Assembly (NCBI GenBank): GCA_963780185.1
Contig: CAWABA010000007.1
Span: forward strand, 185,175 to 249,174
Length of the DNA: 64,000 nucleotides
Direction of reading: 5' to 3'
Source of the DNA: Candidatus Bathyarchaeota archaeon
GTDB lineage: Archaea > Thermoproteota > Bathyarchaeia > Bathyarchaeales > Bathycorpusculaceae
How positions within the stretch are numbered: the first letter of the stretch is position 1; each line of letters begins with the position of its first letter. Below the pieces are notes generated by a model. It saw nothing but the letters and a program-made list of their open reading frames with translations. It ran no database searches and was not told the origin of the DNA. The position numbers and the translations under genes were made by a program. Positions 8,984 through 30,455 of this stretch are shown here, one piece after another.

Positions 8984-9790
8984 TTAAATTTTAATCCAGG
9001 TTTCTTGAGTAAGTTGAGTTAGCTGGCTTTTTGCTTGGTCTTGATTTTCTGAGTTTTTGAAGGAAAGAATGGGATTTAGATTTTGGGAAATTGTTTTTAG
9101 GTCGTTTGCGATGAAATCTGGTTTTTGCTGGCTATCTGATAGATCTTTTAGCGTGTTGAACTGCGAAGCAACAAAGACCGTTCTTAGCCCTGCCTCTTTT
9201 GCTCCTTTGATGTCTTCGATCGGGCTGTCGCCGATGTAAACCGCCTGCTCTGCTTGGACTTGCAGCTTCTTGAGGGCGTCTTGGAATACGTGGCTGCTGG
9301 GTTTTCTCCATCCAACTGCCTCGGAAACCAATGTTGCGTTGAAGTAGCCGTCGATTCCCAGTTTTCGTAAGCTTTTGTAGATGACGGGTGCATAGGTGAA
9401 GTTCGATATTAACCCGACTTTGCGTTGGGCTTGGACTTGTTTGAGGAGTTTTTTTGCGCAGTCCCGCAACTCAAGCGTGTCGATGAAGTCTTGGAAGAAA
9501 ACGTTCAAGGCGGCTTTCACCCTGTCATCCTCAGGCGTCACGTTGAAGCCGAGGTTTTGGAGTGCTTCTGCGACCCAGACGGCGTTGGTGACTTCCCGCA
9601 GTTGCTCGTAGCGGACTTTGCGGTACTTTTCATGCGCCGCACTGTAAGCAGCCATAAATTTGTTTTCGGCGGCGTTGAAGCCTTCGCCGAGGAGCGCGTG
9701 GTACAGGTTCTTCTTTGATTCGTCCATGCTGTAGCCTTTGCAGTTGACGAGGGTTCCGACGTAATCGAAAATGATGGCTTTGCAGGTCAT
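8984..9790 (-). CDS. HAD-family hydrolase
   Basis: IFDYVGTL, ISN, WRKP, IGDSPIEDIKGA. Confidence 0.9.
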   Translation of the reverse strand: MTCKAIIFDYVGTLVNCKGYSMDESKKNLYHALLGEGFNAAENKFMAAYSAAHEKYRKVRYEQLREVTNAVWVAEALQNLGFNVTPEDDRVKAALNVFFQDFIDTLELRDCAKKLLKQVQAQRKVGLISNFTYAPVIYKSLRKLGIDGYFNATLVSEAVGWRKPSSHVFQDALKKLQVQAEQAVYIGDSPIEDIKGAKEAGLRTVFVASQFNTLKDLSDSQQKPDFIANDLKTISQNLNPILSFKNSENQDQAKSQLTQLTQETWIKI

Positions 9791-10533
9791 CGCTGGCTCT
9801 TCCCTTTCAAGATGGTTTTTTCAGTGATTTTTCGGAGGGCTTCTGCCGCCGATGTCTGCATTAGCTTTTCGGGCTTTCCGATTGCTGCTTCCACCTGCAG
9901 GTCAAACGGGATGGCGCCAAGGTACCGTAGCCCCAGTTTTCGGGTTCCCAGTTCAACGTTTTCTGACTTATCCATTTTCATGTTCTCGACAACGCCGATG
10001 ATTGGCATTGTGAGTTCGCAGAGAAGTTCCGCCTGTTTCTTCACGGTTTCGAAAGCGAGCATTGACGGCGTTGTCACGATTAGGAATTCAATGCGTTTGA
10101 TGAGCCGCACCAAATCTAGGACGGCGTCGCCGATGCCTGGCGGCATGTCAATTACTAGGAAGTCAAGGGTGCCCCATTGGGTGACTGAGAGGAGTTCGAT
10201 TAGGGCGTTTGAGATGTCGGCTCCGCGGAGGGGGGCGGGTTTGTCGCCGATGAAGTAGATTAGGGACATGTACTCCATGCCGTGGACGGTGGGTGGGACG
10301 ATGCCTTTTTCTTCTTGCAACTCGGCTTTTTGGGCGCCGAGGATTATGTGGGTTGAGGGTCCTGTGAAGTCGAGGTCGAATAAGCCGACTTTGCAGCCGC
10401 TTCGTGCAAGGGCGAGTGAAAGTGCGGTTGCGACCATGCTTTTTCCTACGCCGCCTTTGCCGCTTGAAACAGCGATTACGTGGCTTATTCGGCTTAATCG
10501 CTCGTTAATTACGCTTGTTCGCGGGTCAGACAC
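9787..10533 (-). CDS. mrp: Mrp/NBP35 P-loop ATPase (Fe-S carrier)
   Basis: SGKGGVGKS, DLDFTGPS, IDMPPG, GVVENM. Confidence 0.9.
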   Translation of the reverse strand: MSDPRTSVINERLSRISHVIAVSSGKGGVGKSMVATALSLALARSGCKVGLFDLDFTGPSTHIILGAQKAELQEEKGIVPPTVHGMEYMSLIYFIGDKPAPLRGADISNALIELLSVTQWGTLDFLVIDMPPGIGDAVLDLVRLIKRIEFLIVTTPSMLAFETVKKQAELLCELTMPIIGVVENMKMDKSENVELGTRKLGLRYLGAIPFDLQVEAAIGKPEKLMQTSAAEALRKITEKTILKGKSQR

Positions 10534-10535
10534 GA

Positions 10536-10934
10536 TTATCTGGCTCCTTTCACACTCTCAAGCCAAATCCCGCGCCCGCTGGCGATTTCAAAGTCAGGAC
10601 TGCCACATTTCGGACACTTAATAAAGCTGTGCGCAACCTCGGGAACAAAATGAATCGCTTCAGCCGTCGCCTTATCCATTTTTTTAACGTCAAACTGCCA
10701 CGTGGCGGCGCAAACCCTGCATCGCAGTGTGCTTTTGGCTTTGAGGATGCGGAACTTCGCGCATTTGAAAAGCGGCGTCTTCAGCTCTGACAGGGCGAAG
10801 CGCAGAATGGGTCGTTCAACCTGCTGTAGCTCGCCGATTCTGATGGTGACTTCTAAAACTTCCTTTAGCTTTTCTTTCTCAGCAATCTCTTTCGCCGAGG
10901 CTAAAACTGCTTCAGCAAGCGCCCATTCATGCAT
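10536..10934 (-). CDS. hypA: Hydrogenase nickel incorporation protein HypA
   Basis: MHE start, IGELQ, CRVC and CPKCGS. Confidence 0.95.
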   Translation of the reverse strand: MHEWALAEAVLASAKEIAEKEKLKEVLEVTIRIGELQQVERPILRFALSELKTPLFKCAKFRILKAKSTLRCRVCAATWQFDVKKMDKATAEAIHFVPEVAHSFIKCPKCGSPDFEIASGRGIWLESVKGAR

Positions 10935-11006
10935 AAACTCTCATACCCGCTGGCATTTAAAAACAATATTGCAGATGAAAAAGATTTTCAGAGAAAAATC
11001 CGAAGG

Positions 11007-11660
11007 CTATGGTGTTAGCGTTTGGTTCTGGGTGACTACCCATCGGTTTGTGCCGACCAGTCTTAACACATCAGTCTTCTGCACGAATTCGCCAGTTGCC
11101 TTGTTGACAAATTCATGCGTTCGACACAACTCAACAAGCACTCCCGTCTCCCTATCAAAATAGCAGCTGCCCCAATCGTCAGAACAATTCCAAGTGACCA
11201 AATTCGTCTCTCTCGACCCGCTCGGGTAAGCCCAGATTACTGTCTTGTTTATGGTTAGCTGAACGGTTGGAAGCGGGTCGCCCGCCTTGAGGTTCGCTGC
11301 GCAGATGGGAACGCCTTTTTGCGTGAATTTGAGGGCGCTTTCATTCTGGGGGTTTAGGTTGGTTTGGAAGCTGAAGGTGCTTTCGCTTCCGTTTTTGAAG
11401 TGAAGAGTGTAAGCTTGGTCAACCACTAAGCTTGAAACGTTGGCTACGGTGATTCTTAACCAAGCTGTATTGTTGTATTCGAACTGGGGGATTTTCAGTG
11501 TTAAGTTGGGTAGGTTGGAAGTGTAGGCGCCGTATGTTTTGTAGTAAAAGTAGTCTCCTTTGGATACTCCAACTGTCCAACTTGCTGCTGGGGATATGTA
11601 TTGGCTCGCAGACAGGGACACAAGCAAAATCAGAGCCATTAACAAAGGCTTTGTCCTCAT
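11007..11660 (-). CDS. Secreted hypothetical protein
   Basis: Signal peptide MRTKPLLMALILLVSLS; GVSKGDYFYY...FDRETGVLVE. Confidence 0.7.
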   Translation of the reverse strand: MRTKPLLMALILLVSLSASQYISPAASWTVGVSKGDYFYYKTYGAYTSNLPNLTLKIPQFEYNNTAWLRITVANVSSLVVDQAYTLHFKNGSESTFSFQTNLNPQNESALKFTQKGVPICAANLKAGDPLPTVQLTINKTVIWAYPSGSRETNLVTWNCSDDWGSCYFDRETGVLVELCRTHEFVNKATGEFVQKTDVLRLVGTNRWVVTQNQTLTP

Positions 11661-11731
11661 CTTGTGTTTCACCCATTTTTCCCGTGTTTCTCCTAATTTT
11701 TTTGTCAATAAATAGATTTTTGTAAGGGTTT

Positions 11732-11774
11732 CTTGACAAAACTGTTCAGGTTTAGTCAAGGTTTGTGAACAAAC
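11732..11774. promoter_or_regulatory. Candidate operator inverted repeats between divergent genes
   Basis: CTTGACAAAACTG-TT-CAGGTTTAGTCAAG (imperfect) directly followed by GTTTGT-GA-ACAAAC. Confidence 0.4.
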
Positions 11775-11852
11775 TATTTTTCGGGAAAAACTATGTTGGA
11801 TTAGCAAAGTTTTAAGCGTTTCAAAGTCATATTATCGGGCGGTTGAGATACG

Positions 11853-13121
11853 GTGCCTGATGTTCAGGAAGAGATTTATTCAATAATGTTCAGTTCACTT
11901 AAGCATCCTGTACGCCGCAAGATACTTCGCGTACTTTCAGAGAAGCCGCTGACTTTTTCAGAGATGCTTGATTTGCTGGGTGTCTCCAGTTCCAACTTGA
12001 CTTATCACCTTGAAAGCTTAGGCGAGCTTTTGACCCAGGAGAACGGCATCTACAAGTTGTCGACTTTCGGTGCCGCAGCCGTGGGAACCATGAAAATCGT
12101 TGAGGAAGCGCCTGAGGTTCAGCCTAAGAAGCGTGCCTCATCGTTTAAGTGGAAGACAGCTCTTGCGGTTTCGCTTATCGCCTTGATTCTGACGGCAACC
12201 GCGGTAGCATGGGAGTTTAACGCTTTGAACCAAGCATCTATCAAGCAGAACGACCTGCAGTCAAAATATAACCAACTGCTTTCGTGGAGTGCCTCAACAA
12301 GCACAGCCATCAACTTCCTGCAGCAAGTGCCCCAGATTGAAACGTCACATTACCAGGCGACGCTGGAAAGCAACAGTGTCGATCAACCCTCGGATTTGGG
12401 CGGGGTGCTGGAGCAGACTATGATGTATTCGCTTAGCAGCAGCGACAGCAAAATGGATGTTTACTTCCGTTTCCGAAGCGGCGAATTGTCATGGTACCAA
12501 ATCGTCATGCTTAACGGCTCACCAATTTATTCGCAGCCTCAGCCGTACGGCGCCCTGGATGCGGCGAAAGGTTTGCTTAGCAGGCTCGCAGCCTACGAAA
12601 ACGCTTCTTACCTTGAAAACATGAGCAGCACCCTGTCACTGGTCAGCGGCGCTATGCAGAACATGCAGGTAACCGAAGGCAACATCAAGCTTAACGTAAC
12701 CATCTCGGGTGCCACGACGCAGATAGTGATGCTGTACACCGAGAACGGCGTGGATTTTTCACCTAAATGCGTGAGCTTAACCTTCGCGGGCAACGACCTA
12801 ACCAACATGATTGACGACTGGTACCTCTTCACCATCGGAAGCACCACCGTAGATGTCTCCAGCAGCCAAGCGGTCCAGCTGGCGCTCAACGCCGTGAAAG
12901 GCTACAGTTGGACGGCGAACAGCACCACGGTTTCGAACTTCAACGTGCTCTCCCAGCCTGTTTCAGTTGTTTTTCACCCGAACACCAAAAACGGGTTAGC
13001 CCTCTACCCCCAATGGACCGTCACACTCTACCTTGACAAGGTCTACCCGGGCGGCGTCGGCAGCTTGACTGTTGAGGTTTGGGCGGATACGGGAAAAGTG
13101 GCGCAGATACAGAACAGTTGA
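11853..13121 (+). CDS. ArsR-type wHTH protein with a TM helix and large extracellular domain
   Basis: LKHPVRRKIL...LTYHLESL, hydrophobic segment, Ser/Thr/Asn-rich C-terminus. Confidence 0.8.
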   Translation: MPDVQEEIYSIMFSSLKHPVRRKILRVLSEKPLTFSEMLDLLGVSSSNLTYHLESLGELLTQENGIYKLSTFGAAAVGTMKIVEEAPEVQPKKRASSFKWKTALAVSLIALILTATAVAWEFNALNQASIKQNDLQSKYNQLLSWSASTSTAINFLQQVPQIETSHYQATLESNSVDQPSDLGGVLEQTMMYSLSSSDSKMDVYFRFRSGELSWYQIVMLNGSPIYSQPQPYGALDAAKGLLSRLAAYENASYLENMSSTLSLVSGAMQNMQVTEGNIKLNVTISGATTQIVMLYTENGVDFSPKCVSLTFAGNDLTNMIDDWYLFTIGSTTVDVSSSQAVQLALNAVKGYSWTANSTTVSNFNVLSQPVSVVFHPNTKNGLALYPQWTVTLYLDKVYPGGVGSLTVEVWADTGKVAQIQNS

Positions 13122-13136
13122 CGCGCAAGCCTGCTT

Positions 13137-13357
13137 TGCGCGAGGTGTTGTTTGTTTGATTCCGTTGGGGTTTCCGGTAAACTTTTGTAATATTACAAAA
13201 CTTCAAGCGGAAACAATGGTTTTCCCTGTTTCTTTAGCTCTCAAAATCTTAAAGGATTTAAGCCAAAACCCAAAAAGCAACCCATCCCAACCCCCAAGCA
13301 GAAGCCGCCGACGAAGGGAGGGGTCTAGTATTTACAACCAAAACCCACCACAAAAAT
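13137..13357 (+). repeat. Dispersed ~230-bp intergenic repeat, copy A
   Basis: Near-identical to the reverse complement of 26145-26375; contains the perfect palindrome TTTTGTAATATTACAAAA. Confidence 0.92.
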
Positions 13358-13450
13358 GGAGCAGAAAGGCGTATATCCTTTTTTTGGGCGGGGGTAATGG
13401 CAAGTTAGAAATAACTGTTCTAGTGATAGTTGTAGTCTGGACGATGCGTC

Positions 13451-14998
13451 ATGACCGATGTAGTTTTCACGTTTGAGGTTCATCAGCCGCATAGACTCAA
13501 GCGTAAGCTCTTTTGGGAGGGCCAAATCTTCAGTCGCCGCGGCAAAAACGAATTATTCAACTATTACTTCGACAACGAAAACGACAAAGAAATTTTCCAG
13601 CGAGCCGCACGCAAATGCTACTTCCCCTCAAACCAGATCCTGCTCGACTCAATAGACAAACACAAACACGAACACAAACAAGTCAAGGTCTCATTCAGCA
13701 TCTCAGGCGTCTTCCTAGAACAATGCCAAATGTTCGACCCCAACCTGCTGGAAACCTTCAAGCAACTCGCCGAAACCAAACGCGTAGAATTCCTAAACCA
13801 AACCTACTACCACTCAATCGCAAGCCTATACCCAGACAAAGAAGAATTCATTGAACAAGCAAAAATGCATAAACAAACCGTAAAGGACCTGCTTGGCTAC
13901 ACACCGACCGTCTTCGAGAACACCGAACTACTCTACAACAACACAATCGCCAAAACAGTCGAAACACTCGGGTACAAAGGCATCTTCACAGAAGGCATCG
14001 AGAAAATCCTCGGCGAAAAATCACCCAACTACCTCTACACTCCGAGAGGCGCAAAGAAAATTCGGGTATTACTCAGAAACTACAAACTCACCGACGACAT
14101 CGGCTTTAGGTTTTCGGCAAGATGGTGGCCCGAGTGGCCCCTGACCGCTGACAAATACGCGGGTTGGCTGGCTAACGCGCCTGGCCAATGCATCAACATT
14201 TTTCCCGATTACGAAACCTTCGGCGAACATCATTGGCCCGAAACTGGTATCCACAGTTTTCTGCAGCATCTTCCAGATGAAATACTGAAGTTTGACAGTT
14301 TACAGATGGCGACCCCATCCGAAGTAATAGCCAGGAACGATTCCGCAGGCGAAATCGATGTGCCTGAAGCCCAAGGCACAGTTTCATGGGCAGACGTGCA
14401 GAGAGATCAAACTGGCTGGTTAGGCAACGTCATGCAGTGGGCTTATTACACGGCGCTTCGTCGATTGGAACCACTCATCAAAGAAGCCGACGACGCAGAG
14501 TGGCTTAAACTGTGGCGTGACTTCCAAACAAGCGACCACCTCTACTACATGTTCACCGCAGGCGGAGGACCAGGCGAAGTCCACTCATACTTCAGCCCCT
14601 ACGAGTCGCCGATGGATGCCTTCGCAGTAGCGCAAACACTGCTAAACGATTTTGAAGCAAGACTTCGACTGTCAATCTCAGCGGCGAACGAACCCTTCCT
14701 GTTCCACACAGACGTCGGAAAAGAATACTACACTGGAACAATGGCTTGGAGCCTCAAAGGATTCATCAAAGCCGTCAGCGAAGTCAACGCGAAAGCCATC
14801 GAGTTTCACATGGAAAACGGAGATTTTGAAAGCTGGACACAAAACTCCCTTAAAGACCAAAAATTGGCATCACAACTCAAACAGCTTAAAGATTCAAAAG
14901 AAAAAGGCGAAGAACTAAGAGAAGCTATGTTGGATTTGGCAAAAAAACGTTACGCAACATTATACAAGCAAACGCAGGATGCAACCAAGCTATTCTAA
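13451..14998 (+). CDS. GH57 alpha-amylase/amylopullulanase-type enzyme with C-terminal DUF5752-like domain
   Basis: FEVHQP, QTYYHS, NTEL, DYETFGEH, TSDHLYYM. Confidence 0.92.
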   Translation: MTDVVFTFEVHQPHRLKRKLFWEGQIFSRRGKNELFNYYFDNENDKEIFQRAARKCYFPSNQILLDSIDKHKHEHKQVKVSFSISGVFLEQCQMFDPNLLETFKQLAETKRVEFLNQTYYHSIASLYPDKEEFIEQAKMHKQTVKDLLGYTPTVFENTELLYNNTIAKTVETLGYKGIFTEGIEKILGEKSPNYLYTPRGAKKIRVLLRNYKLTDDIGFRFSARWWPEWPLTADKYAGWLANAPGQCINIFPDYETFGEHHWPETGIHSFLQHLPDEILKFDSLQMATPSEVIARNDSAGEIDVPEAQGTVSWADVQRDQTGWLGNVMQWAYYTALRRLEPLIKEADDAEWLKLWRDFQTSDHLYYMFTAGGGPGEVHSYFSPYESPMDAFAVAQTLLNDFEARLRLSISAANEPFLFHTDVGKEYYTGTMAWSLKGFIKAVSEVNAKAIEFHMENGDFESWTQNSLKDQKLASQLKQLKDSKEKGEELREAMLDLAKKRYATLYKQTQDATKLF

Positions 14999-15057
14999 AA
15001 ACTAACGCGTTTATAAGCGAAGTCTGCTAATAATTAAAACAGTATGGTGTATTATCC

Positions 15058-15309
15058 ATGAGAGACGAGCTTCCCTTTCCAGACAAGGTCTTGCAAACAC
15101 TGCATAACTTATGCGCAACAGCCGCTGATTTGGCGAGAAGAGGCGAGGAAGTGGCAAGGCTTATGCAGAAAGACCCCAGCGAAATCGAAAACATTTTGGA
15201 TCAGTACAAGTCTGAAGGCTTCGCTGAAAGCTTCTATGACAACGAAGGAAAGAAACGATATTATCTCACTGGAAGAGGAATAATCAAGGTCTGCTCGCTT
15301 TTCACGTAG
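15058..15309 (+). CDS. Small winged-helix-like protein
   Basis: 83 aa ending RYYLTGRG; in the glycogen gene cluster. Confidence 0.6.
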   Translation: MRDELPFPDKVLQTLHNLCATAADLARRGEEVARLMQKDPSEIENILDQYKSEGFAESFYDNEGKKRYYLTGRGIIKVCSLFT

Positions 15310-15316
15310 TGGAAAC

Positions 15317-15943
15317 ATGCGTGTCATCATCTTTTCTTGGGAGTATCCGCCTAGGGTCGTAGGTAAACTCGCAGAGTATGTGAAGGCTTTGTCAAGTCTT
15401 CTTGCCAGCAATGACGTCGAAGTAAACGTTGTAACTTACGATGACTCCGTAACGGGTTCCGCTAAGGACTCAACAGGCGTGCAAACTGTTCGAGTGTCAA
15501 ATCCTGTTCGAACCCACATTGGAGTTCTAACCTGGGTTCTAACGCTAAACCAAGAAGTTGAAAGAGCAGCAGCCAACCTTTACTATCAAGCTAAAAAACA
15601 AATTGACCTAATTGACGTTTTCGACTGGCATTTTATCCCAGCCGCAGTCACCATAAAAAACGGGTTAGGCGTACCGTTTGTTTATTCCGTCGAAAGCTTA
15701 GAGGACCATCGATCCCAAGGCTTAAGCACACCCTACAACATGGCTATTAAAAGTATTGAGTGGCTGGGTTTTTATGAAGCGCAAAAAATCAGCGTTAAAT
15801 CTGAGTGGATGCGAGACGAAATCGTCAGAATCTACAAGGTTCCTCAAGAAAAAATCGCTGTAGTTCCAACCATCTCAAGTTCGTGGATAAAAGAGATTCT
15901 TAAACTCTACAGTAACGTCTCCGGAGGCTTAAATGCCGAATGA
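15317..15943 (+). CDS. GT4 N-terminal-domain-only protein
   Basis: SWEYPPRVVG, DWH; lacks the C-terminal EPFG domain. Confidence 0.8.
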   Translation: MRVIIFSWEYPPRVVGKLAEYVKALSSLLASNDVEVNVVTYDDSVTGSAKDSTGVQTVRVSNPVRTHIGVLTWVLTLNQEVERAAANLYYQAKKQIDLIDVFDWHFIPAAVTIKNGLGVPFVYSVESLEDHRSQGLSTPYNMAIKSIEWLGFYEAQKISVKSEWMRDEIVRIYKVPQEKIAVVPTISSSWIKEILKLYSNVSGGLNAE

Positions 15944-17145
15944 AAAACGATTTAACAGTTATGATGCTTAGCTGGGAGTTCCCGCCACGAGTTATTGGAG
16001 GAATTTCACCTCATGTCTTCTTTTTGTCAAAGAGTTTGGCGAAGCAGGGCGTAAAAGTTTACGTTGTAACATGTGATTTTCCTGATGCACCAACGCATGA
16101 AGTGATTAACGGGGTAGAGGTTTACCGCATTGACTCCTACAAGAACCCAGCGCCTGACTTTGCAACATGGGTTTATCTGATGAATCTTAACATGCAAAAG
16201 GAAACAGCAGCGTTGACCAGAAAGATCGGGAACAAGATCGATTTGCTGCATTGTCACGATTGGCTAGTAGCTAACGCTGGAATAGGGCTCAAACATGTCT
16301 TTCGTAAACCTCTTTTGGTGACTATGCATTCAACTGAAATAGGCAGAAGAGACGGGTTACATACAGACACCGAGAAAATGATTCATGAAACTGAAGCATG
16401 GCTCAGCTATGAAGCGTGGAAGGTTGTTTGCTGCAGTGACTACATGATTTCACACGTGAAATGGGCTTTCGGATTACCCAATGACAAGTTAGTCATGGTT
16501 CCTAACGGAGTCAACACCAAGGATTACAACGCTTCTCAAGAAGACTTGACGGATTTCAGGAGCAAATTCGCGCTGCCGGAAGAAAAAATAGTTCTTTTCG
16601 TTGGCAGATTGGTATATGAAAAAGGCATCCACATATTGATTAACGCTGTCCCCAAAGTTTTGGACAAAGTTAACGCTAAATTCATCATTGTCGGCAGCGG
16701 CTATATGAAAGAGCAGCTTCTGAACATCGTTCGCAGCATGAAATTGGAGCACAAAGTCCTCTTCGAAGGTTTCCTTGACGAACAGACCCTGCTTAAACTT
16801 CAACAATGCGCTGACGTATCCGTTGTGCCTTCACTGTTTGAGCCGTTTGGAATCGTCGCATTAGAGGCTATGGCAGCAAAAAGCCCCGTTGTCGCGTCTG
16901 ACACGGGTGGCTTATCCGAAATCATAGAGCATGACGTAACAGGAGTAAAAGTTTACCCGAACAATCCTGATTCGTTGGCGTGGGGAATAAACAAAGTTCT
17001 GCTTGACGACGGCTACCGGTGGCATATTAGGGAAAACGCCTACAAAAAAGTATTGGACAGGTATGATTGGGAAAAGATCGCCCAACAAACTAAACGCATT
17101 TACGAGGGCGTTTTAGGCGAGTACTCCAACAGTTTCTGGGCTTAA
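15940..17145 (+). CDS. GT4 glycosyltransferase; its 3' end is the integration target
   Basis: SWEFPP, HCHDW, VGRLVYEKG, FEPFGIVALEAM. Confidence 0.93.
   Translation: MKNDLTVMMLSWEFPPRVIGGISPHVFFLSKSLAKQGVKVYVVTCDFPDAPTHEVINGVEVYRIDSYKNPAPDFATWVYLMNLNMQKETAALTRKIGNKIDLLHCHDWLVANAGIGLKHVFRKPLLVTMHSTEIGRRDGLHTDTEKMIHETEAWLSYEAWKVVCCSDYMISHVKWAFGLPNDKLVMVPNGVNTKDYNASQEDLTDFRSKFALPEEKIVLFVGRLVYEKGIHILINAVPKVLDKVNAKFIIVGSGYMKEQLLNIVRSMKLEHKVLFEGFLDEQTLLKLQQCADVSVVPSLFEPFGIVALEAMAAKSPVVASDTGGLSEIIEHDVTGVKVYPNNPDSLAWGINKVLLDDGYRWHIRENAYKKVLDRYDWEKIAQQTKRIYEGVLGEYSNSFWA
17115..17141 (+). repeat. attL
   Basis: AGGCGAGTACTCCAACAGTTTCTGGGC, 26/27 identical to 21226-21252. Confidence 0.95.
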
Positions 17146-18106
17146 AACACCAGATACTCGCCTGATAGAGCAAATACCCAAAATAGCCAAAGTTCTTGAA
17201 AACTTAGAAGGACTTGGCAAAGAAAAAACTACGAGAAAAACCTACAGGAAACTTCTCTTAAGATTAGCAAGCAAAGTAAACTTAAACGAACCTGAACTTG
17301 TCAACCTTGCCATAGCCCGATTCAAGAAATTTGACCGCAAAACAGGAAGAGACACAAACAAAGAAGTAACCAACGGGTACAAAGACAAACTAATATTTGC
17401 CTACAAAACATACGTCGAATATTACAACATCCAAAACTGGAAACAGCCATATTATAAAGCAGAAGAAAAAGGCATACAACCACCAAACGACGAAAGAGTA
17501 AAATTCTTAATAGCAACAGCCAAAGAACCCCTTAACATAAAAATTATGATAATCGGAGAAACAGGGTTAAGACCCAAAGAAGTCACAGGAACAGACGGAC
17601 TCCAAGTAAACGACATACACAAAGACACAAAAACAATGGTTGCAAGAAGCTTGAAAGGATGCAACCCAAGACCACCAATGCCATTGAGCGATGAACTGTT
17701 AACGGCACTCACCAACTACATAACAAAACACAAGCTAAAAGGCACAGACCAACTGTTCATAGGAGACTCTGAAACGCTATCAAACCACTTTTACGACCAC
17801 AAAAAACTATTAGCAAAAAGACTAAACGACCCAACAATCGAACAAACACGCCTCTACGACATCAGACACTATTACATAACCAAGAAAGTTAGAAAACTAC
17901 AAAACACCGAAATAGTCAGACAAATAACAGGACACAAAAGACTAAACACGCTACAAAGATACATCCATATAGCCATCAACCAAACAGGAGAATGGATTAT
18001 CGAGCAAACGAATGACCGAGCAAGAGCTAAAGAACTCGCAACACAGGGATTTGAATATCAACTGACTACACCAGACAATTACATGCAGTTTAGAAAACCA
18101 AAATAG
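17117..18106 (+). CDS. int: Tyrosine integrase, int(C) fragment without a native start
   Basis: Frame open from attL (TAG at 17114) to 18106; GLRPKE (R), SLKG (K), YDIRHYY, ITGHKRLNTLQRY (H, Y). The track ORF at 17546 uses an internal Met. Confidence 0.9.
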   Translation, partial: ASTPTVSGLKTPDTRLIEQIPKIAKVLENLEGLGKEKTTRKTYRKLLLRLASKVNLNEPELVNLAIARFKKFDRKTGRDTNKEVTNGYKDKLIFAYKTYVEYYNIQNWKQPYYKAEEKGIQPPNDERVKFLIATAKEPLNIKIMIIGETGLRPKEVTGTDGLQVNDIHKDTKTMVARSLKGCNPRPPMPLSDELLTALTNYITKHKLKGTDQLFIGDSETLSNHFYDHKKLLAKRLNDPTIEQTRLYDIRHYYITKKVRKLQNTEIVRQITGHKRLNTLQRYIHIAINQTGEWIIEQTNDRARAKELATQGFEYQLTTPDNYMQFRKPK

Positions 18107-18230
18107 CCTTATTTTTTTTCCGTTCCGCTCCGCTTGCGCTCCGCTGCACTCCCCAAAAAATATTCAGCGATTTAAAAGATTATTCAAACATGAAAGCCGA
18201 CCATCTTCAAAACCGCATGACCTATACAGG

Positions 18231-18563
18231 CTAACTATCATCTATGTAACCCTTATCTTCCGAAGACAATTGTTTAGGAACTACAAATCCAGCAGGTGCA
18301 ACAAAACGTTTACAAATGAACCTTAAGCGACCCTTTACATCATAGGTGAAACAAGCACCAGCATTCAGTAAATAGTCAAACCTCTTACAATGTAATTTAT
18401 CATATGGGCAATCAGTATTTGAAAACTGACTCTTAACCATAGAGGAATTAGACGAATATTGCTTAACTTCAACAAAATTAGAGTCATCAACAACATTATG
18501 TTTTTCGGCAATATTTGAATTAGATTTAACACGAGAAAGCCGACGTTTACCCATAAACATCAA
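18231..18563 (-). CDS. Element hypothetical protein with Cys residues
   Basis: Follows the Rep C-terminal ORF by 2 bp; AAGGTTGA upstream. Confidence 0.55.
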   Translation of the reverse strand: MMFMGKRRLSRVKSNSNIAEKHNVVDDSNFVEVKQYSSNSSMVKSQFSNTDCPYDKLHCKRFDYLLNAGACFTYDVKGRLRFICKRFVAPAGFVVPKQLSSEDKGYIDDS

Positions 18564-18565
18564 CC

Positions 18566-18871
18566 TTAAACGAACTCATACCGAGAAATATAGGGCTTAC
18601 GCCTATCACTATCAGCAACAACTTGCCACACCTCAACACCACCCTCAACCGCAGGCATCCAACTATCTCTGACATAATCAACCGCATACTTAGCCAACGC
18701 AAAAACCTTACTACCCAAATATTTAGCCTCAACTAACTCATGCTGACAAAGCGGACAAAGCATTTTCCGAATCTCATAAGTGACCTTCAATTTCCGATAA
18801 CTACAATTACCAAACCAAGTAACAATCACATGACGATTTCTGACACTATTAACTGATAAAACCTGACTCAT
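18566..18871 (-). CDS. Putative C-terminal module of the HUH Rep (Zn-ribbon)
   Basis: HVIVTWFGNCSYRKLK...CPLC; same frame as 18872..19741, ATG directly after its TGA. Confidence 0.7.
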   Translation of the reverse strand: MSQVLSVNSVRNRHVIVTWFGNCSYRKLKVTYEIRKMLCPLCQHELVEAKYLGSKVFALAKYAVDYVRDSWMPAVEGGVEVWQVVADSDRRKPYISRYEFV

Positions 18872-19741
18872 TCAGAAACCCCCCACCTTAACAGCGCAGT
18901 GATTTAGCTGATACCAAGCCGTGCCAAAAACCGTAGCACGTTCAGCCTCACATTTAATAATATAATGATTTTTCGTGTAAGAACCCCTAACTCGCGCCTC
19001 GAAACCATCACAACCAGCACAAACAAACTCATTACCGTGCTCCTCAATCAAGCGACCACCACGAGAACGAAAACGCCTTAAAGTTTTGGCACAAGACCTA
19101 CACTTACCATAACCACCAAGAATAAATGCTATACTGTGTATATGCGGACTCCAATACCATCCAAACAAAACGCCTTTTTCAATCGACTCTTGATAATTCG
19201 CATACCTAAAACCATGAAAAATGAGACAACCGCCTACAACACCAACCTCAGACAAAATTCTCTTTACCTTAACTCGAAACTTATCGTTATGAAATTCAGC
19301 TAAACCCAAATCCGAATATGGCGGACTAACAATAATATGCTGAGGAGCACCAAACCGCTTAGATGCAACCTCTATTCGCTGAGCAATGTGGTCAGCCTCA
19401 CGCTTAGCATAACCCGAAAAACAGCAAACAGGACACAGTGGATTATTACATGAACGATGAATCTTACGCACAAAATTCTCGCCAACATGGGAAACACCAT
19501 CCAAATTAGACTGACTATGAAGCTCAACACGATTACAAATCATTAATTTTTGAAAAGCACCACAATAAGAATTAGTTTGAACCCCATGACCAGCTAACCA
19601 CCAAAAACCATGATGAGCGCTAACATCCTCTGGAGCCTCACAATCACCAAAAGACTTAGCATAGTCATAGTAAAGATTTTCAACTTCTTTCTCGGATAAT
19701 CCCCTAACAGTTGGAAAAACCGAAGCCAACTTTTCAGACAT
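18872..19741 (-). CDS. rep: HUH-superfamily rolling-circle replication initiator (Rep)
   Basis: Cys-rich N-terminus (CNNPLCPVC), motif 1-like HIIVSP, motif 2 WSPHIH, motif 3-like WYQLNH. Confidence 0.78.
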   Translation of the reverse strand: MSEKLASVFPTVRGLSEKEVENLYYDYAKSFGDCEAPEDVSAHHGFWWLAGHGVQTNSYCGAFQKLMICNRVELHSQSNLDGVSHVGENFVRKIHRSCNNPLCPVCCFSGYAKREADHIAQRIEVASKRFGAPQHIIVSPPYSDLGLAEFHNDKFRVKVKRILSEVGVVGGCLIFHGFRYANYQESIEKGVLFGWYWSPHIHSIAFILGGYGKCRSCAKTLRRFRSRGGRLIEEHGNEFVCAGCDGFEARVRGSYTKNHYIIKCEAERATVFGTAWYQLNHCAVKVGGF

Positions 19742-19997
19742 AAAGCTTTCCGTCCTTCTTTAAAATCGCGTAAATACTAACCTTAACGGAAGTAACCCAA
19801 GAAGGCAACCAACAACACCTAAGACCATCCTGACAACAGACACCAGACGCCAAATTAATGTAAAAATTACGGCACGGCAAACCAAAATAAGGACAGTTTG
19901 GAGCGCCACGCAAACGAACACACAAATCAAAACACGCTATCATAGAAAGCGAAACTTTTTTTCCAGCAGCGGACAAATCAACCTTTTGAACCAACAC
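19734..19997 (-). CDS. Element Cys-rich hypothetical protein
   Basis: Overlaps the rep start by 8 bp; GAAGGTG upstream. Confidence 0.5.
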   Translation of the reverse strand: MLVQKVDLSAAGKKVSLSMIACFDLCVRLRGAPNCPYFGLPCRNFYINLASGVCCQDGLRCCWLPSWVTSVKVSIYAILKKDGKLYV

Positions 19998-20339
19998 ACC
20001 ACACCTTCAAGCAAACAAGTTGCCGCTAAAAACTATATGTAAGGAGCTCTCATGAAAAGCGCAAAACCCAAAATCCATTGGTAACAATCAACAACACTTT
20101 ACATAAAAATTTACCAAATACTATATAAAGAAAATAAAAAACTGGTGCTTTCACTTTCAAATCAAAATTAGCATTTTTATCAGCAGTAATTGACAAATTG
20201 CCAACGATTAACAACATATTACTTGAAATCTCATCGAAAAAAAAATAGCGCCAAAAACAAATATACACTAACAACAATTAACGCTATTCAATAAATAACC
20301 AACATCATTCAATCAAAAAATCAAAATACCGAAGAAACC

Positions 20340-20790
20340 CCCAAGAAACCACATTTCTTAAACTCCCTGTTAAAAGGAGACACAAGAACCAACAGGAGAA
20401 GAACCATTTCCCCCAGAAGGTTCTCTCCCGTAGTTTCTATAGCCCCCTCAAGAACTGGACACATAAAAAAATGCAAGCATTTTTTATGAACCTAAACCCC
20501 CACACCAGAGACTCCTTTAAACCTTGACTCACTTACCTACTTTCCGTGTTCACCCGAACCCCACACGGCAATTTTTCAGTGAAAAATTGAGTAAAGCATT
20601 CCCAGGGGAATATCAATAAGCACATGGGAACACACAGGCGTCACCTGTGCTTCAGAAAGGCTTAACCCCTTCGGAAAACGAATGTCCCCAAGAAATTGAA
20701 TTTCTTGGCGTTTTCCCGCCCAGGGGAAGCCTTTCTTCGTGACATGCAATAGCCAATGCCGTAAATCGGCAATTAGGCTATGCCGTCATT
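20340..20790. other. Hairpin-rich non-coding region: candidate replication origin (dso/sso) or structured RNA
   Basis: Stems at 20395-20428, 20462-20488, 20544-20568, 20569-20589, 20633-20649, 20654-20736 (nested) and 20749-20781. Confidence 0.65.
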
Positions 20791-21134
20791 AAAACGCCAG
20801 CAACAACTCCACAGAGGAAAGACAGCCATGCAATAGGAACTTAGCCGACCAACGATTAACAGCGCAGAGCCGAGTCAAATAGAACTTAAGCCAAAAAATA
20901 AGCGTACAGCTCACCGCAAACGCAAATAGCCCGCCAATCGCACAACGCCAATTTTTCAGCAAAAACAGAAACCAACACAATCTTTACTTTCAAAAAGAAG
21001 ATTATTCAAAGAAAGATTAACAGAAAGAAAAAACAGATTAGACCAATAACCTAACAGCAAATTTACTAAGCAGTTAGCAACCTAAAAAACAAACTGTAGA
21101 AATGAAGAACACTTTAACCATTAAACAATTTAGA

Positions 21135-21150
21135 AATAACACTTATAACT
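21135..21150 (+). promoter_or_regulatory. BRE/TATA promoter for int(N)
   Basis: AAATAACACTTATAAC about 38 bp upstream of ATG 21186. Confidence 0.55.
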
Positions 21151-21185
21151 AGCCACATTCACAAGATACCCACAGATGAAGTAAA

Positions 21186-21263
21186 ATGACAGAAACAGCA
21201 ACACCCAATAAATTACTAAGGCTTAAGGCGAGTACTCCAACAGCTTCTGGGCATGAAGCCTAA
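21186..21263 (+). CDS. int: Integrase int(N) fragment
   Basis: MTETATPNKLLRLK then ASTPT read through attR in the same frame as int(C) at attL. Confidence 0.8.
   Translation: MTETATPNKLLRLKASTPTASGHEA
21226..21252 (+). repeat. attR, carrying the displaced original 3' end of the GT4 gene
   Basis: GGC GAG TAC TCC AAC AGC TTC TGG GCA TGA = GEYSNSFWA*, the same peptide as the gene end at attL. Confidence 0.95.
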
Positions 21264-21266
21264 ACG

Positions 21267-22625
21267 CTACTTGCCTATTACCCTTACGTTTTCAACTTGA
21301 ATCCACGGAGAAATCAGTTGCCCCATCTGCCGCTCGTTGCTGCCGACTAAACTCACGTTTTTGAGCACTTCATAAATGTTGCCTGCCAACATGACGCCTC
21401 TGCTGCAGTGGGTTATTTCGCCTTTCGTAATCTTCCAAGCTGGGGTCGCAACCACTGAGAACTCGCCACTGACTGGGTTACTGCTATGCGCACCCTGCAA
21501 GTAGTAGACTATTAGGCCGTCGTCAACTTCTCTTAGCATTTCATCTGCTGTTTTGTCTCCTGGCAAAATGTGAAAGTTTGTAGTGTCGATGCTGGGCGTT
21601 GACAAATATCCTGCGCGTCCTGCGTTTCCCGTGCTTTTTTTGCCTTCTTTTTTTGCTGAGTAGCTGTCATATAAGAAGCTGCGCAAAACGCCTTTCTCGA
21701 TGACTGCTGTTTTCTGGTGAGGCACACCCTCGCCGTCGAAGGCCCAAGTGCGAAGACCGCCAGGGAACAAGCCGTCATCGTAAACTGTTAGTTTTTCAGA
21801 AGCCACTTTCTCGCCGATTTTCCCCTTAAAGGCAGACTGATTTCTCTGCACGCTGTCGGCTCTGACTGCGTTAATTAGGGTGTAAGCAAAAAGGTCCTGC
21901 AGTGCAAACTGGGTTAGAATTAATGTGGTGCTTTTGGTTTCAACCGATTTGGTTTTTAATGCTGAAACAGCCAGTTTCGCCGCTTCTTTGCCAACCCAAA
22001 CTGGGTCAACCTCGTAACTTCTTGACGCATTGAATTCGAAGCAAACAGGCGTAACCGAGTTGCCTTCCTTTGCTAAGGTTGCTATGCTGCACTCGACAAC
22101 TGTGCCTTTGTCAAAACCCGAGATTCCGTTTGAGTTGGCGACGGCGTTGGAAATGTAAGCGCTGCCGATCCCGCCCTCGATTGGGAACACCCTCTTGTCA
22201 ACTTGTCCAGCGGCGTCCAGCATGGTTGCTGCGACTTTTACGAGTTCTTCAGACTCAAGTTCCACGATCCTTTCATCAAACGTTTTTTCGAGTGATGCGT
22301 AGGGTTTGTTTTCTGGTAGCCCCTTCCAGTCTGGGTCAGGCTTGCTTGCTTTCGCCGCGCTCAAAGCCCTAGCGATTACGCCCTCAACTGCTTTTGTGTC
22401 GTCGATTACGTTTGTGTAGCCGAAACCCATCGCTTTGTCGGCGACTACGCGGATGCCTAAGCCTCGGTCAATTATCCTGTTTGTCTTGCTGATTTGCCCC
22501 AGTTCTATGCCGATGTTTGTCGCTTGCCCCTCGTAAACGTAAGCCTCGGCTTCTGAAGCTCCCTTTTTCAAGGCTAAACTTACCGCGTTTTCAGCCAAAT
22601 TCACCATTACGTCTTTTTTAAGCAC
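21267..22625 (-). CDS. pmbA: TldE/PmbA family protein
   Basis: [26 protein letters not shown]; probable GTG start overlapping the tldD stop. Confidence 0.9.
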
Positions 22626-24004
22626 TGCCACCGACAACAACCTCCTTAATGCTAATGTGGGGTCCTCCGTCACAAATGAAAGCAATCTGACCTTTACCGC
22701 ATCTGCCTGGATCGATGAGAAAATCTTTCCCGACGCCATCGACTTTGTTTAATGTTTCAAGCGTGTTTCCGCTTATTGAGGCGTCACGTACTGGCCCGCC
22801 TACTTCGCCGTTGACTATTTCGTAGCCTTCTTGGATTCCGACTTGGAAGGTGCCGTCAAGGTTAGCTTGTCCGCCCCTGAAACTCTTGAAGTAGAAGCCC
22901 TGCTTTACGTTTTCGACTAATTCTTCAAAGGAATGATCTCTGGGCTCCATGTAAGTGCAGCGCATTCGGATGATTGGTTCCACCCGAAAATCTTCGGCTC
23001 TCGCGTTGCCTGTGGGTTTAGCGTTAAATGTTTGGGCGGTTTCACGGTTATGCATTAAGCCTGCGACAACGCCGTTTTTTATAAGCAGTGTTTTCTGGGT
23101 TTGAACCCCTTCATCGTCGTATTTGAAGGCGCCAAAAGAACCTTCTATTGTGCCGTCATCATAGAACGTGACTAGATCAGACCCGATTTTCCTACCTAAG
23201 TTGCTTGCTAAGACGCCGCCTGAAAGAGCCAAGTCAGCTTCAGCCAGGTGACCAAACGCTTCATGAACAAAAACTCCAACAACGTTCGGACCCAAAACAA
23301 CGGGGAACCTTCCTCCCTTCAAAGATTTGGCGGCGAGCTGGTCAATCGCGCGTTTAGCTACTTTTTGGCCTAACTCTTCAGGAGGCTGCTCGTCGAACAC
23401 TTCGTAGCCTGCAGTGGAGCCTAGCTTCTTCTCGACTGGAAGTGAAGACGCCCCCTTCTTGGGCTGAACCCGCGATTCTTGCCCAAACATACAACTTGTC
23501 CTGCTCAATGCTTGAGCCGTCACTGTTAACAAAATAGCTGGTGCCCATCAAATCCAAATAATCAATCGTGAAACTCTTTATCCGTTTATCATAGCGCAAG
23601 CCCGTCTTGTTTACGGTCATGGCTGTTTTGATTTTGTCCTCCATTGAAATATCCGCTGGATTCTTCTTCGGCTTAGACCTGACGCGGTCAGTAACCACTG
23701 GTGCCTCGGCAATCTTAATCGGCTTCTTCAGATGCAAGCTCGCCATCTTCGCCATTCTGCAAGCATCAGAAACTGCGCCCTCCAAAATGGCAGGGTCCAA
23801 AGAGCCGACGGACGCAAATCCCCACGCCCCATTCACAAGTACGCGCAGTGCTACTCCGCTTTCAATTCCCTGTTTTGCCGCTTCCACCCGCTCCTCCTTA
23901 ATAGTTAGCATTGTTTTGTCCAGTTTCTGTGCGCGGGCTTCGGCGTATTGTGCTCCGAACTTTTGAGTGGCGATGTTGTTGATTTTGGTCAGAAGGTCTT
24001 TCAA
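22618..24004 (-). CDS. tldD: TldD metalloprotease (frameshift near 23425, likely a sequencing error)
   Basis: [23 protein letters not shown]; two ORFs join. Confidence 0.9.
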
Positions 24005-30376: not shown

Positions 30377-30455
30377 TGGTGCGGTCGCCGGGATTTGAAC
30401 CCGGGATCATTAGCTTGGAAGGCTAATGTCCTAAACCAGACTAGACAACGGCCGC
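30377..30455 (-). tRNA. tRNA-Gly(TCC), CCA encoded
   Basis: GCGGCCG...TTAGC-CTTCCAA-GCTAA...CCGGGTTCAAATCCCGG-CGACCGC-ACCA. Confidence 0.95.

Follow-up and report, generated by a model that had tools for sequence, protein, structure and literature searches.

How can an integrase persist if its gene is destroyed each time the enzyme is used? Such an enzyme should die out, and the puzzle has so far been posed by a single integrase family with tRNA targets, found mostly in hyperthermophiles. It is raised again by an insertion in a Bathyarchaeial genome, studied here within a stretch of 64,000 nt (the window) that covers positions 185,175 to 249,174 of contig CAWABA010000007.1 in assembly GCA_963780185.1; all coordinates below are those of the window unless a locus is named. 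At the 3' end of a glycosyltransferase gene lies an element of 4,111 bp and low GC content. Its left end opens with an integrase frame that has no start codon of its own, and its right end carries an ATG that leads into the same frame. Our reading, to which we assign a probability of about 0.7, is that this is the self-splitting integrase of an integrated 4.1-kb plasmid-like element, whole only when the element is a circle.

The attachment sites and the two parts of the integrase frame

The element lies between direct repeats at 17115 to 17141 and 21226 to 21252 (both plus strand), which are its attachment sites on the left (attL) and on the right (attR). They are part of the top repeat within 16500 to 21800 (17112 to 17146 and 21223 to 21257; 35 nt, 89% identity). 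Their 27-nt core has one mismatch: an exact block of 18 nt (17115 to 17132, identical to 21226 to 21243) is followed by a T/C position and by 8 exact bases. At the T/C position, attL has an element-type T (17133) and attR has a host-type C (21244). The GC content is 0.34 to 0.46 within the element versus 0.45 to 0.52 outside it. The start of the attachment site, GGCGAGTA (17117 to 17124), has an inverted copy, TACTCGCC, at 17155 to 17162, inside the integrase frame.

The target is a gene for a GT4 glycosyltransferase of 401 amino acids (15940 to 17145, plus strand; PF00534, 2e-45; PF13439, 2e-26). Its last nine codons, GEYSNSFWA, and its stop codon fall inside attL, and the same C terminus followed by a stop is encoded at attL, at attR, and at the empty site of the closest relative, described below. 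The codons differ, with AGT, GCT, and TAA at attL and AGC, GCA, and TGA at attR, the latter preserving the glycosyltransferase gene's original 3' end. The end of the host gene has thus been replaced by a synonymous copy, and the host protein is unchanged. Read in another frame, the same attL bases also code for ASTPTVSGLK of the integrase. That the target is a protein gene, as the initial annotation had proposed, agrees with the absence of any tRNA or Rfam family at the attachment sites (no Rfam match at an E value of ≤1 in 16800 to 21500); the sole tRNA of the window, found with ARAGORN, is at 30377 to 30455.

The integrase gene's C-terminal part, int(C), occupies 17117 to 18106 on the plus strand and encodes a XerA-like tyrosine integrase (PF00589 at residues 133 to 286; E value of 3.7e-12; 46.8 bits against a cutoff of 27.1). 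It is preceded by a TAG at 17114 to 17116 and ends with another at 18104 to 18106. The initial annotation had placed the start of this open frame at 17115; its length of 329 codons stands, and the start belongs at 17117. There is no ATG, GTG, or TTG for 143 codons, the first start codon being the ATG at 17546 (codon 144), the internal methionine that had been pointed out. In an alignment of 20 family members, R152, K180, Y247, H273, and Y282 are invariant and R250 is nearly so, and these residues (R152, K180, Y247-x-x-R250, H273, and Y282) align with the catalytic residues of XerA (PDB 5hxy). All of them reside in int(C), so the catalytic domain is on the int(C) side of the split. The same alignment has a conserved stretch of about 45 amino acids after the catalytic tyrosine and no conserved columns before residue 23; one idea is that the N-terminal tail may be disordered. 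The frame is uninterrupted over its 329 codons in the window and in two related elements (loci L032 and L058). Between the window and L032, dN is 0.078 and dS is 0.62, a ratio of 0.125 by the Nei-Gojobori method, which indicates that int(C) is under purifying selection.

The N-terminal part, int(N), consists of an ATG and 13 further codons (MTETATPNKLLRLK) at 21186 to 21227 on the plus strand. In the integrated state its frame continues through attR as ASTPTASGHEA to a stop at 21261 to 21263, giving 25 amino acids in total. ASTPT is read in the same phase at attR, coming from int(N), and at attL, in int(C). The alignments and frames bear out the initial annotation on its central points: the ATG at 21186 reads through attR in the phase of int(C), the attachment site is inside the integrase frame and separates int(N) from int(C), as it also does in L032, L046, and L058, and int(C) has the catalytic R, K, YxxR, H, and Y. 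A TATA-like box, TTATAA, can be read from the sequence at 21143 to 21148 (plus strand), 38 nt 5' of the ATG. ACTTATAACTAGCCA is kept in L046 and L057, and L032 has ATAAATA there. A scan for sigma-70 promoters and terminators gave the same counts as shuffled sequences, and its model is inapplicable to archaea. A +1 frameshift fusing the glycosyltransferase to int(C) was set aside by reasoning that the P-site GCT would not re-pair on CTT.

This anatomy suggests the following course of events. In the free circle, the attachment site of the element (attP) would lie inside the integrase gene, 14 codons after the start, and the circle would carry in order a promoter, the ATG with its 14 codons, the attachment site, and 329 codons, together a 343-aa integrase. 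As a tyrosine recombinase, this enzyme would carry out site-specific recombination with a similar 27-nt site that covers the final nine codons of the glycosyltransferase gene, with a crossover presumably within the 18-nt exact block. Integration would leave int(C) at the left end, directly behind the host stop codon and without a promoter or start codon of its own, while the promoter, the ATG, and the 14 codons would be carried to the right end, at a distance of 4.1 kb. The element half of the attachment site would rewrite the last host codons synonymously, with a new stop codon, TAA, in place of TGA, the bases being read in two frames. Full-length integrase would come from the circular copy alone, the integrated copy would be silent, and we infer that excision would need the enzyme of an episomal or related copy.

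Empty sites, related elements, and their targets

An ortholog of the glycosyltransferase was found in 31 of the 36 other genomes of the same genus that were searched, and the orthologous locus was taken from 29 of these other genomes. In the window, the right flank of the element is a PmbA/TldD-family peptidase gene (21267 to 22739, minus strand; PF19289, 2e-73), convergent with the glycosyltransferase gene. The empty target site (attB) is present in 22 of the 29 loci, where the 3' end of the PmbA gene is 32 to 500 bp from that of the glycosyltransferase gene (32 to 222 bp in 21 loci and 500 bp in 1); in the window, 4,146 bp separate these two gene ends. Downstream of the glycosyltransferase gene, no integrase was found in any of the 29 loci. 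The remaining seven lack the PmbA flank and carry other genes (a long open reading frame [ORF] that by eye looks secreted in six, other ORFs in one), again with no integrase, and here the synteny simply differs. In the closest relative, L003, the glycosyltransferase is 92% identical and the empty site, GGCGAGTACTCCAACAGCTTCTGGGCATGAAGC, equals attR of the window. To the right of the 18-nt block, attL has T plus TTAAAAC, unlike the empty site of L003, whereas attR matches it. Element-type sequence at attL and host-type sequence at attR form the pattern of a reciprocal recombination, with the crossover probably placed within the 18-nt block.

Related elements sit at the same glycosyltransferase gene in other records. 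The element in L032 is 10,025 bp long with an integrase 87% identical to that of the window, and the one in L046 is 6,114 bp long with an integrase 75% identical; metagenome contig L058 has a version of 8,792 bp at the same gene, and metagenome contig L057 holds a right end. In L032, L046, and L058, int(C) opens right after TAG and an in-phase ATG begins int(N) at the right end. The int(N) sequence that leads into the attachment site is MTATTEPNKLVRLK followed by ASIQT in L046 and L058 and MKTTESKNVALK followed by ASIQT in L032. The target is spelled GAGTATTCAAAC in the L032 and L046 hosts versus GAGTACTCCAAC in the window and the elements carry the matching version, which is why the integrase tail reads ASIQT instead of ASTPT. 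The 18-nt block is identical at attL and attR within each of the window, L032, and L046, and it differs between the two host groups at two synonymous sites (TACTCC versus TATTCA). The int(C) of L046 has seven small indels, which are either decay or sequencing error. A member of the integrase family occurs in 16 of 120 genomes of the genus, and three of these have the glycosyltransferase type. The recurrence of the same split at the same gene, together with the 22 empty sites among 29 loci, makes the observation more than chance.

The family extends well beyond this target. A scan of one genome per species yielded 25 loci that encode relatives of the integrase; by record title, 23 are Bathyarchaeia or Bathyarchaeota, 1 is a Thermoproteota archaeon, and 1 is a contig binned as Nitrospiraceae. 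The hosts are Bathyarchaeia metagenome-assembled genomes, including SPRUCE and MFD isolates. A protein collection held 99 homologs, and cluster representatives gave 15 clusters at an E value of ≤1e-30 and 137 at ≤1e-10. Homologs have hypervariable N termini up to a conserved IEQIPKI-like helix. In this XerA-like Bathyarchaeial family the split appears to be the rule, the attachment site lies in the hypervariable N-terminal tail after a conserved LL(R/S)xK motif, and the targets vary by clade among tRNA-Arg, the glycosyltransferase gene, and an Spt4 gene.

Most int(C) frames in the genome loci open after TAG with EAGALS. This segment is the reverse complement of part of the anticodon stem and D stem of tRNA-Arg (AGGCTGGTGCTCTATCC), and a second copy of the core lies 1.8 to 8.3 kb downstream. 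The left junctions overlap weak tRNA matches of 32 to 41 bits, where intact tRNAs in the same loci score 62 to 70 bits. At the downstream tRNA-Arg copy, an ATG frame ends in LL(R/S)xK and then runs into the core in the AGALS phase, as with MTEALKANKLLSRK before AGALS in L038 and MSKQTVRKSKKLLSPK before AGALS in L049. In L037, only a crossover in the 18-nt core keeps both integrase halves in frame. Among 27 entries examined, 16 have both attachment site copies in the fetched DNA and 11 have no pair there; an in-phase ATG frame stands at the downstream copy in 13 of the 16 paired loci (all 4 of the glycosyltransferase type and 9 of the 12 of the tRNA-Arg type). The LL(R/S)xK ending of int(N) is common to glycosyltransferase-type and tRNA-type relatives. 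The initial annotation had named homologs with nothing like int(N) as one finding that would speak against a split gene; what the relatives have is a conserved int(N) that ends in LL(R/S)xK directly before the attachment site.

A third target is represented by L042 (2620 to 2806 and 7445 to 7476 of that locus), where the attachment site covers codons 1 to 10 of an Spt4 gene (PF06093, 1.2e-12) that is antiparallel to the integrase. Its int(N), MNNQETQNQKDENQKIRRV, is in phase, which is one case beyond the 16 pairs. In the integrated state of L042, the element supplies the region upstream of spt4.

Three further relatives carry starts of other kinds. In L047, a complete Bathyarchaeia chromosome (CP170178.1; region 8985 to 12330), a tRNA-type core at 8985 is followed about 930 bp on by an intact integrase of 340 amino acids with an ATG, and a separate int(N) frame lies at 12202 to 12267; an integrase gene may have been reconstituted here by a nested or tandem insertion. 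The 333-aa homolog P0028, with 11 member sequences, begins MAGALS, its ATG abutting the tRNA-type core where integrated copies have TAG-GAG, and may be an intact gene in the attP form with an int(N) of a single methionine. The right end of L039, MTGALC, resembles the start of P0028.

When the glycosyltransferase attachment site and the tRNA-Arg core are anchored after LL(R/S)xK, 10 of 16 bases are identical (p of about 0.002), and it may be that the glycosyltransferase site was first used as a pseudo-site by an ancestor specific for tRNA-Arg. A tree built by a quick method from 30 chosen rows of about 125 available sequences, with SH-aLRT support alone, places the glycosyltransferase clade within a clade of otherwise unknown targets, beside and not inside the tRNA-Arg clade, and thus gives no direction for a target switch.

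Two of the tRNA-type loci have what reads as a rebuilt tRNA gene at the left junction (L037, 9866 to 9996; L038, 9513 to 9662; both minus strand), made up of the host 3' part, a spacer of 50 to 65 nt, and an element-borne copy of the tRNA 5' end, which is at the same time coding sequence of int(C) (SVLSYSP or IRAELPAQ). Both fold as a cloverleaf with a long D-loop hairpin (z of -2.1 and -2.7). The D-loop insertion may be an intron installed by the element; passages of PMC3293823 propose that an attP carrying an intron gave rise to the tRNA-Thr intron at position 24/25. If this is true of the tRNA-Arg clade, mobile elements would have a direct route to seed noncanonical tRNA introns.

State of the integrated gene and content of the element

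Several observations weigh against a gene that is whole only in the circle. No circle and no intact 343-aa gene of the glycosyltransferase clade was found in the protein collection, in metagenome and viral contigs, or in public runs, which are sparse sources. The close homologs in the protein collection all begin inside int(C), and a pattern search for int(N) joined to the attachment site matched no viral contig and only two from metagenomes, L057 and L058, each with an integrated copy. The element is present as a single copy in its 13-contig assembly. The 143 codons without a start codon are not a significant depletion that could be read as a signal of selection for silence, since these A-rich genes have few such codons along their whole length; the C-terminal halves hold 2 to 6 ATG, GTG, or TTG codons in most copies and 11 in L038. 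The promoter before int(N) is likewise a putative one.

Viral-contig relatives of the integrase locus are only 20 to 32% identical, a phage collection gave weak matches alone, to integrases of bacterial P2-like phages, and no terminal overlap was found in the short contigs L048 and L055 or in the metagenome contigs L057 and L058. The public DNA runs were three from one study, two sharing 0.14 and 0.05 of sampled words with the stretch searched and a third, included as part of that study, sharing 0.00, and no RNA run was listed. Their contig pieces of 84 to 374 nt are mostly from the element interior, with no joint and none across either attachment site, and are uninformative on a circle or an empty site.

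The alternative that survives best is that the integrase is functional while integrated, through read-through transcription and an internal or noncanonical start; the attachment site would then lie in a dispensable tail, and the split would be harmless and no on/off switch. Here, int(C) is on the same strand as the host gene and directly behind its stop, which makes read-through transcription possible. Codon 26 of L032 and L058 is a GTG in frame, where a public gene call (P0003, 304 aa) begins, and the ATG at codon 144 in the window would give a fragment of 186 amino acids that holds every catalytic residue. The N-terminal tail is probably dispensable, to judge from one relative, L045. This unsplit integrase of 309 amino acids lacks the tail and has its own ATG, its start aligning at about residue 6 of int(C). 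At 49 to 67 nt 5' of this ATG is a 19-nt repeat with one mismatch, which continues with an indel (9892 to 9959 and 13511 to 13529 of the locus). With its putative attachment site upstream of the ATG, this form implies that the split removes a start signal rather than a domain; it may represent the classical layout within the same family and suggests that the layouts can interconvert. What speaks against activity of the integrated copy is that the first 143 codons in the window include no ATG, GTG, or TTG, a GTT standing in place of the GTG of L032 and L058. The far-end ATG, the LL(R/S)xK module, and the phase are kept in 13 of 16 paired loci, which is hard to explain unless that end belongs to the gene. 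Truncated versions of the known self-splitting integrases failed in recombination in vitro, according to passages of PMC8371274, which, for another family, is an analogy only. We consider a functional integrated copy unlikely.

A second alternative is a decayed relic, in which int(C) is what remains of a classical integrase after loss of the start codon, the frame of 14 codons at the right end is a chance ORF, and the insertion is dead. The missing circle and the single copy in the assembly would agree with this, as would the int(C) frames that break early in L046 and in seven tRNA-type paired loci. However, the broken copies come mostly from assemblies that may have indel sequencing errors, a guess made from isolate names, and the ratio of 0.125 was obtained over 329 intact codons whose synonymous sites differ by 0.62. 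The int(N) is also conserved, as a comparison of MTETATPNKLLRLK in the window with MTATTEPNKLVRLK in L046 and L058 shows, with an ending that is kept family-wide, and the 18-nt block is identical at both ends within the window, L032, and L046 even though it differs between host groups. A relic is very improbable in our view. That a plasmid or foreign contig was misjoined to the chromosome at a short shared sequence, for which one could cite the 13-contig assembly and the public runs with their short pieces of element interior alone, is hardly credible, since the same architecture with different cargo (4.1, 6.1, 8.8, and 10.0 kb) is found at this gene in three or more further independent records and both junctions fit reciprocal recombination, with element-type bases at attL and host-type bases at attR.

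Apart from the integrase, the element of the window has three ORFs, all on the minus strand. One of 289 amino acids (18872 to 19741) is rich in cysteine and has an HUH-like P-H-x-H motif; none of its 486 homologs has a Pfam domain, and many of them sit on contigs of 3 to 5 kb. In this family H176, F178, Y180, P199, H200, and nine cysteines are invariant, and H202 and Y260 are nearly so. A language-model feature search placed the protein nearest to Rep_1 clusters (score of 0.96). The Rep_1 profile itself (PF01446) weakly matched 1 of 26 family members (E value of 0.085), and a profile search of PDB with the family gave no match. At about even odds, to judge from these motifs and matches, the protein may be a rolling-circle Rep. 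Directly after it comes an ORF of 101 amino acids with a CxxC motif (18566 to 18871), followed by one of 110 amino acids (18231 to 18563); neither has a Pfam, PHROG, or NCBIfam match. The 1.4 kb from 19742 to 21140 contains short ORFs alone and has no Rfam match. Parts of it are conserved in related elements, and our guess is an origin or a regulatory region. Compared with L057 and L058, the element is 88% identical over 18550 to 19726, 71% over 20400 to 20597, and 83% from 20893 on. Across 17000 to 21500 its plus strand is rich in C and A (GC skew of -0.06 to -0.39; AT skew of +0.18 to +0.50), uniformly so even where the ORFs are on the minus strand. Such a uniform strand asymmetry could stem from rolling-circle replication.

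The related elements have in common the integrase, an ORF of the 289-aa type, and the right end; their cargo differs. L032 carries cargo that is not in the window element (11214 to 19124 of that locus), including a BglII-like restriction endonuclease (PF09195, 1.8e-41), a DUF4145 protein, and a LAGLIDADG fragment. It further carries a second, weak PF00589-like ORF, and its Cys-rich protein has 447 amino acids.

Two features of the host flanks are recorded for completeness. An ORF of 208 amino acids (15317 to 15943, plus strand) that has the N-terminal GT4 domain alone lies directly 5' of the full-length glycosyltransferase gene, with a 4-nt overlap. On the other side, a TldD-like peptidase gene (22618 to 24004, minus strand) is broken up into two ORFs that overlap and differ in frame, with domains 1 and 2 in 23378 to 24004 and domain 3 in 22618 to 23532, by either a frameshift or an assembly error.

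Comparison with known systems

Self-splitting integrases are presented in passages of PMC8371274 and PMC7253208 as the PF16795 families of SSV, pTN3, and pT26-2, which have tRNA targets, and these passages tie the system to hyperthermophiles, with five members in Methanosarcinales. All 73 pT26-2-related integrases use tRNA genes according to PMC7253208, and a single origin is suggested in PMC8371274, each again as far as the passages of these sources go. Like SSV1, pTN3, and pT26-2 as described there, the element of the window has attP in the integrase ORF, a partition into int(N) and int(C), a catalytic int(C), and a translated attachment site; the SSV1 record, too, annotates an integration site inside int. 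Unlike the SSV family, none of 20 Bathyarchaeial members matches PF16795 at an E value of ≤10, and all 20 match PF00589. The SSV1 integrase, used as a control, matches PF16795 at 1.5e-61 and also PF07935, and BLASTP of the window integrase against it gave no significant similarity (best E value of 5.6). The integrase thus appears to work like that of SSV while standing outside its sequence family. The two also differ in that the int(N) of the window has 14 codons, whereas the annotated site of SSV1 is about 190 nt into the gene, in that the target here is a protein gene read in parallel, unlike the targets of SSV and pT26-2, and in that the hosts here are Bathyarchaeia, in contrast to the link with hyperthermophiles reported for the known self-splitting integrases.

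The nearest solved or curated relative is XerA (PDB 5hxy and 4a8e; NF040815), with an alignment over both domains and matching catalytic residues. The match to 5hxy has an E value of 2.7e-6, and that to NF040815 (6e-18) reaches 65.3 bits, below the equivalog cutoff of 220, so the protein is XerA-like and not XerA. It differs from XerA in being the gene of a mobile element with a patchy distribution (16 of 120 genomes), in having Y for the first H of HxxR, and in the extension of about 45 amino acids after the catalytic tyrosine. With the classical integrases of the pNOB8 and SNJ2 type it shares being a tyrosine integrase of integrative archaeal plasmids or viruses encoded next to the attachment site. 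Their gene is described as intact after integration in passages of PMC8371274 and PMC3293823, whereas the integrated copy in the window lacks a start.

Protein genes are known as targets in archaea. Passages of Krupovic et al. 2019 (PMC6563490) report that, of 68 thaumarchaeal elements, 14 are inserted at the 3' end of a protein gene, a figure legend noting a new stop codon supplied by the element; the 3'-distal location and the new stop are shared with the element of the window. The passages found there on these elements do not mention a split integrase, the supplements not being covered. Bathyarchaeial integrases are mentioned in passing alone in passages of PMC11697101, PMC10541130, and PMC11705971, and no description of such integrases in Bathyarchaeia was found in the literature searched (subscription journals and supplements not covered). 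The initial annotation knew of no description of the combination of a XerC-like integrase with a protein-gene target. The combination was indeed not found described, which is consistent with passages of PMC8371274 and PMC7253208, but the case is not unique: it is a single clade within a Bathyarchaeial family whose usual target is tRNA-Arg.

Taken together, these comparisons allow a broader proposal, which we offer as tentative and at a little less than even odds: that Bathyarchaeia harbor a second, independently evolved self-splitting lineage, XerA-like (PF00589) and outside PF16795; that a short, tolerant tail after LL(R/S)xK can be re-aimed by exchanging a few codons; that clades have shifted among targets (tRNA-Arg, the glycosyltransferase gene at its 3' end, and spt4 at its 5' end), with the glycosyltransferase site as a pseudo-site of the tRNA-Arg core; and that integration at tRNA-Arg rebuilds the tRNA with a D-loop hairpin of 50 to 65 nt. 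The same logic in a different integrase family, in an archaeal group that ranks among the most abundant in sediment and soil, and at protein genes, points to convergent evolution. It suggests that selection, and no accident of history, accounts for the layout, as a compact module for integration with its directionality control built in. It also offers a natural attachment site that is constrained in two frames, as a host C terminus and as an integrase N terminus, and the short tolerant tail suggests how target specificity changes, which is of interest for retargetable integrases. Gene callers label split copies as "XerC/XerD" proteins of 186 to 304 amino acids, and such integrated elements of Bathyarchaeia are for that reason mis-annotated or overlooked.

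A bacterial parallel is offered by phage 21 and e14 in icd of Escherichia coli, where the element carries a substitute 3' end and the host protein stays functional. There, attP is outside the integrase ORF and the integrase is unsplit. The evidence supports the view that the element of the window embodies a known principle in a new form, with a different integrase family, a protein-gene target that is coded in two frames, and a host group that is not thermophilic.

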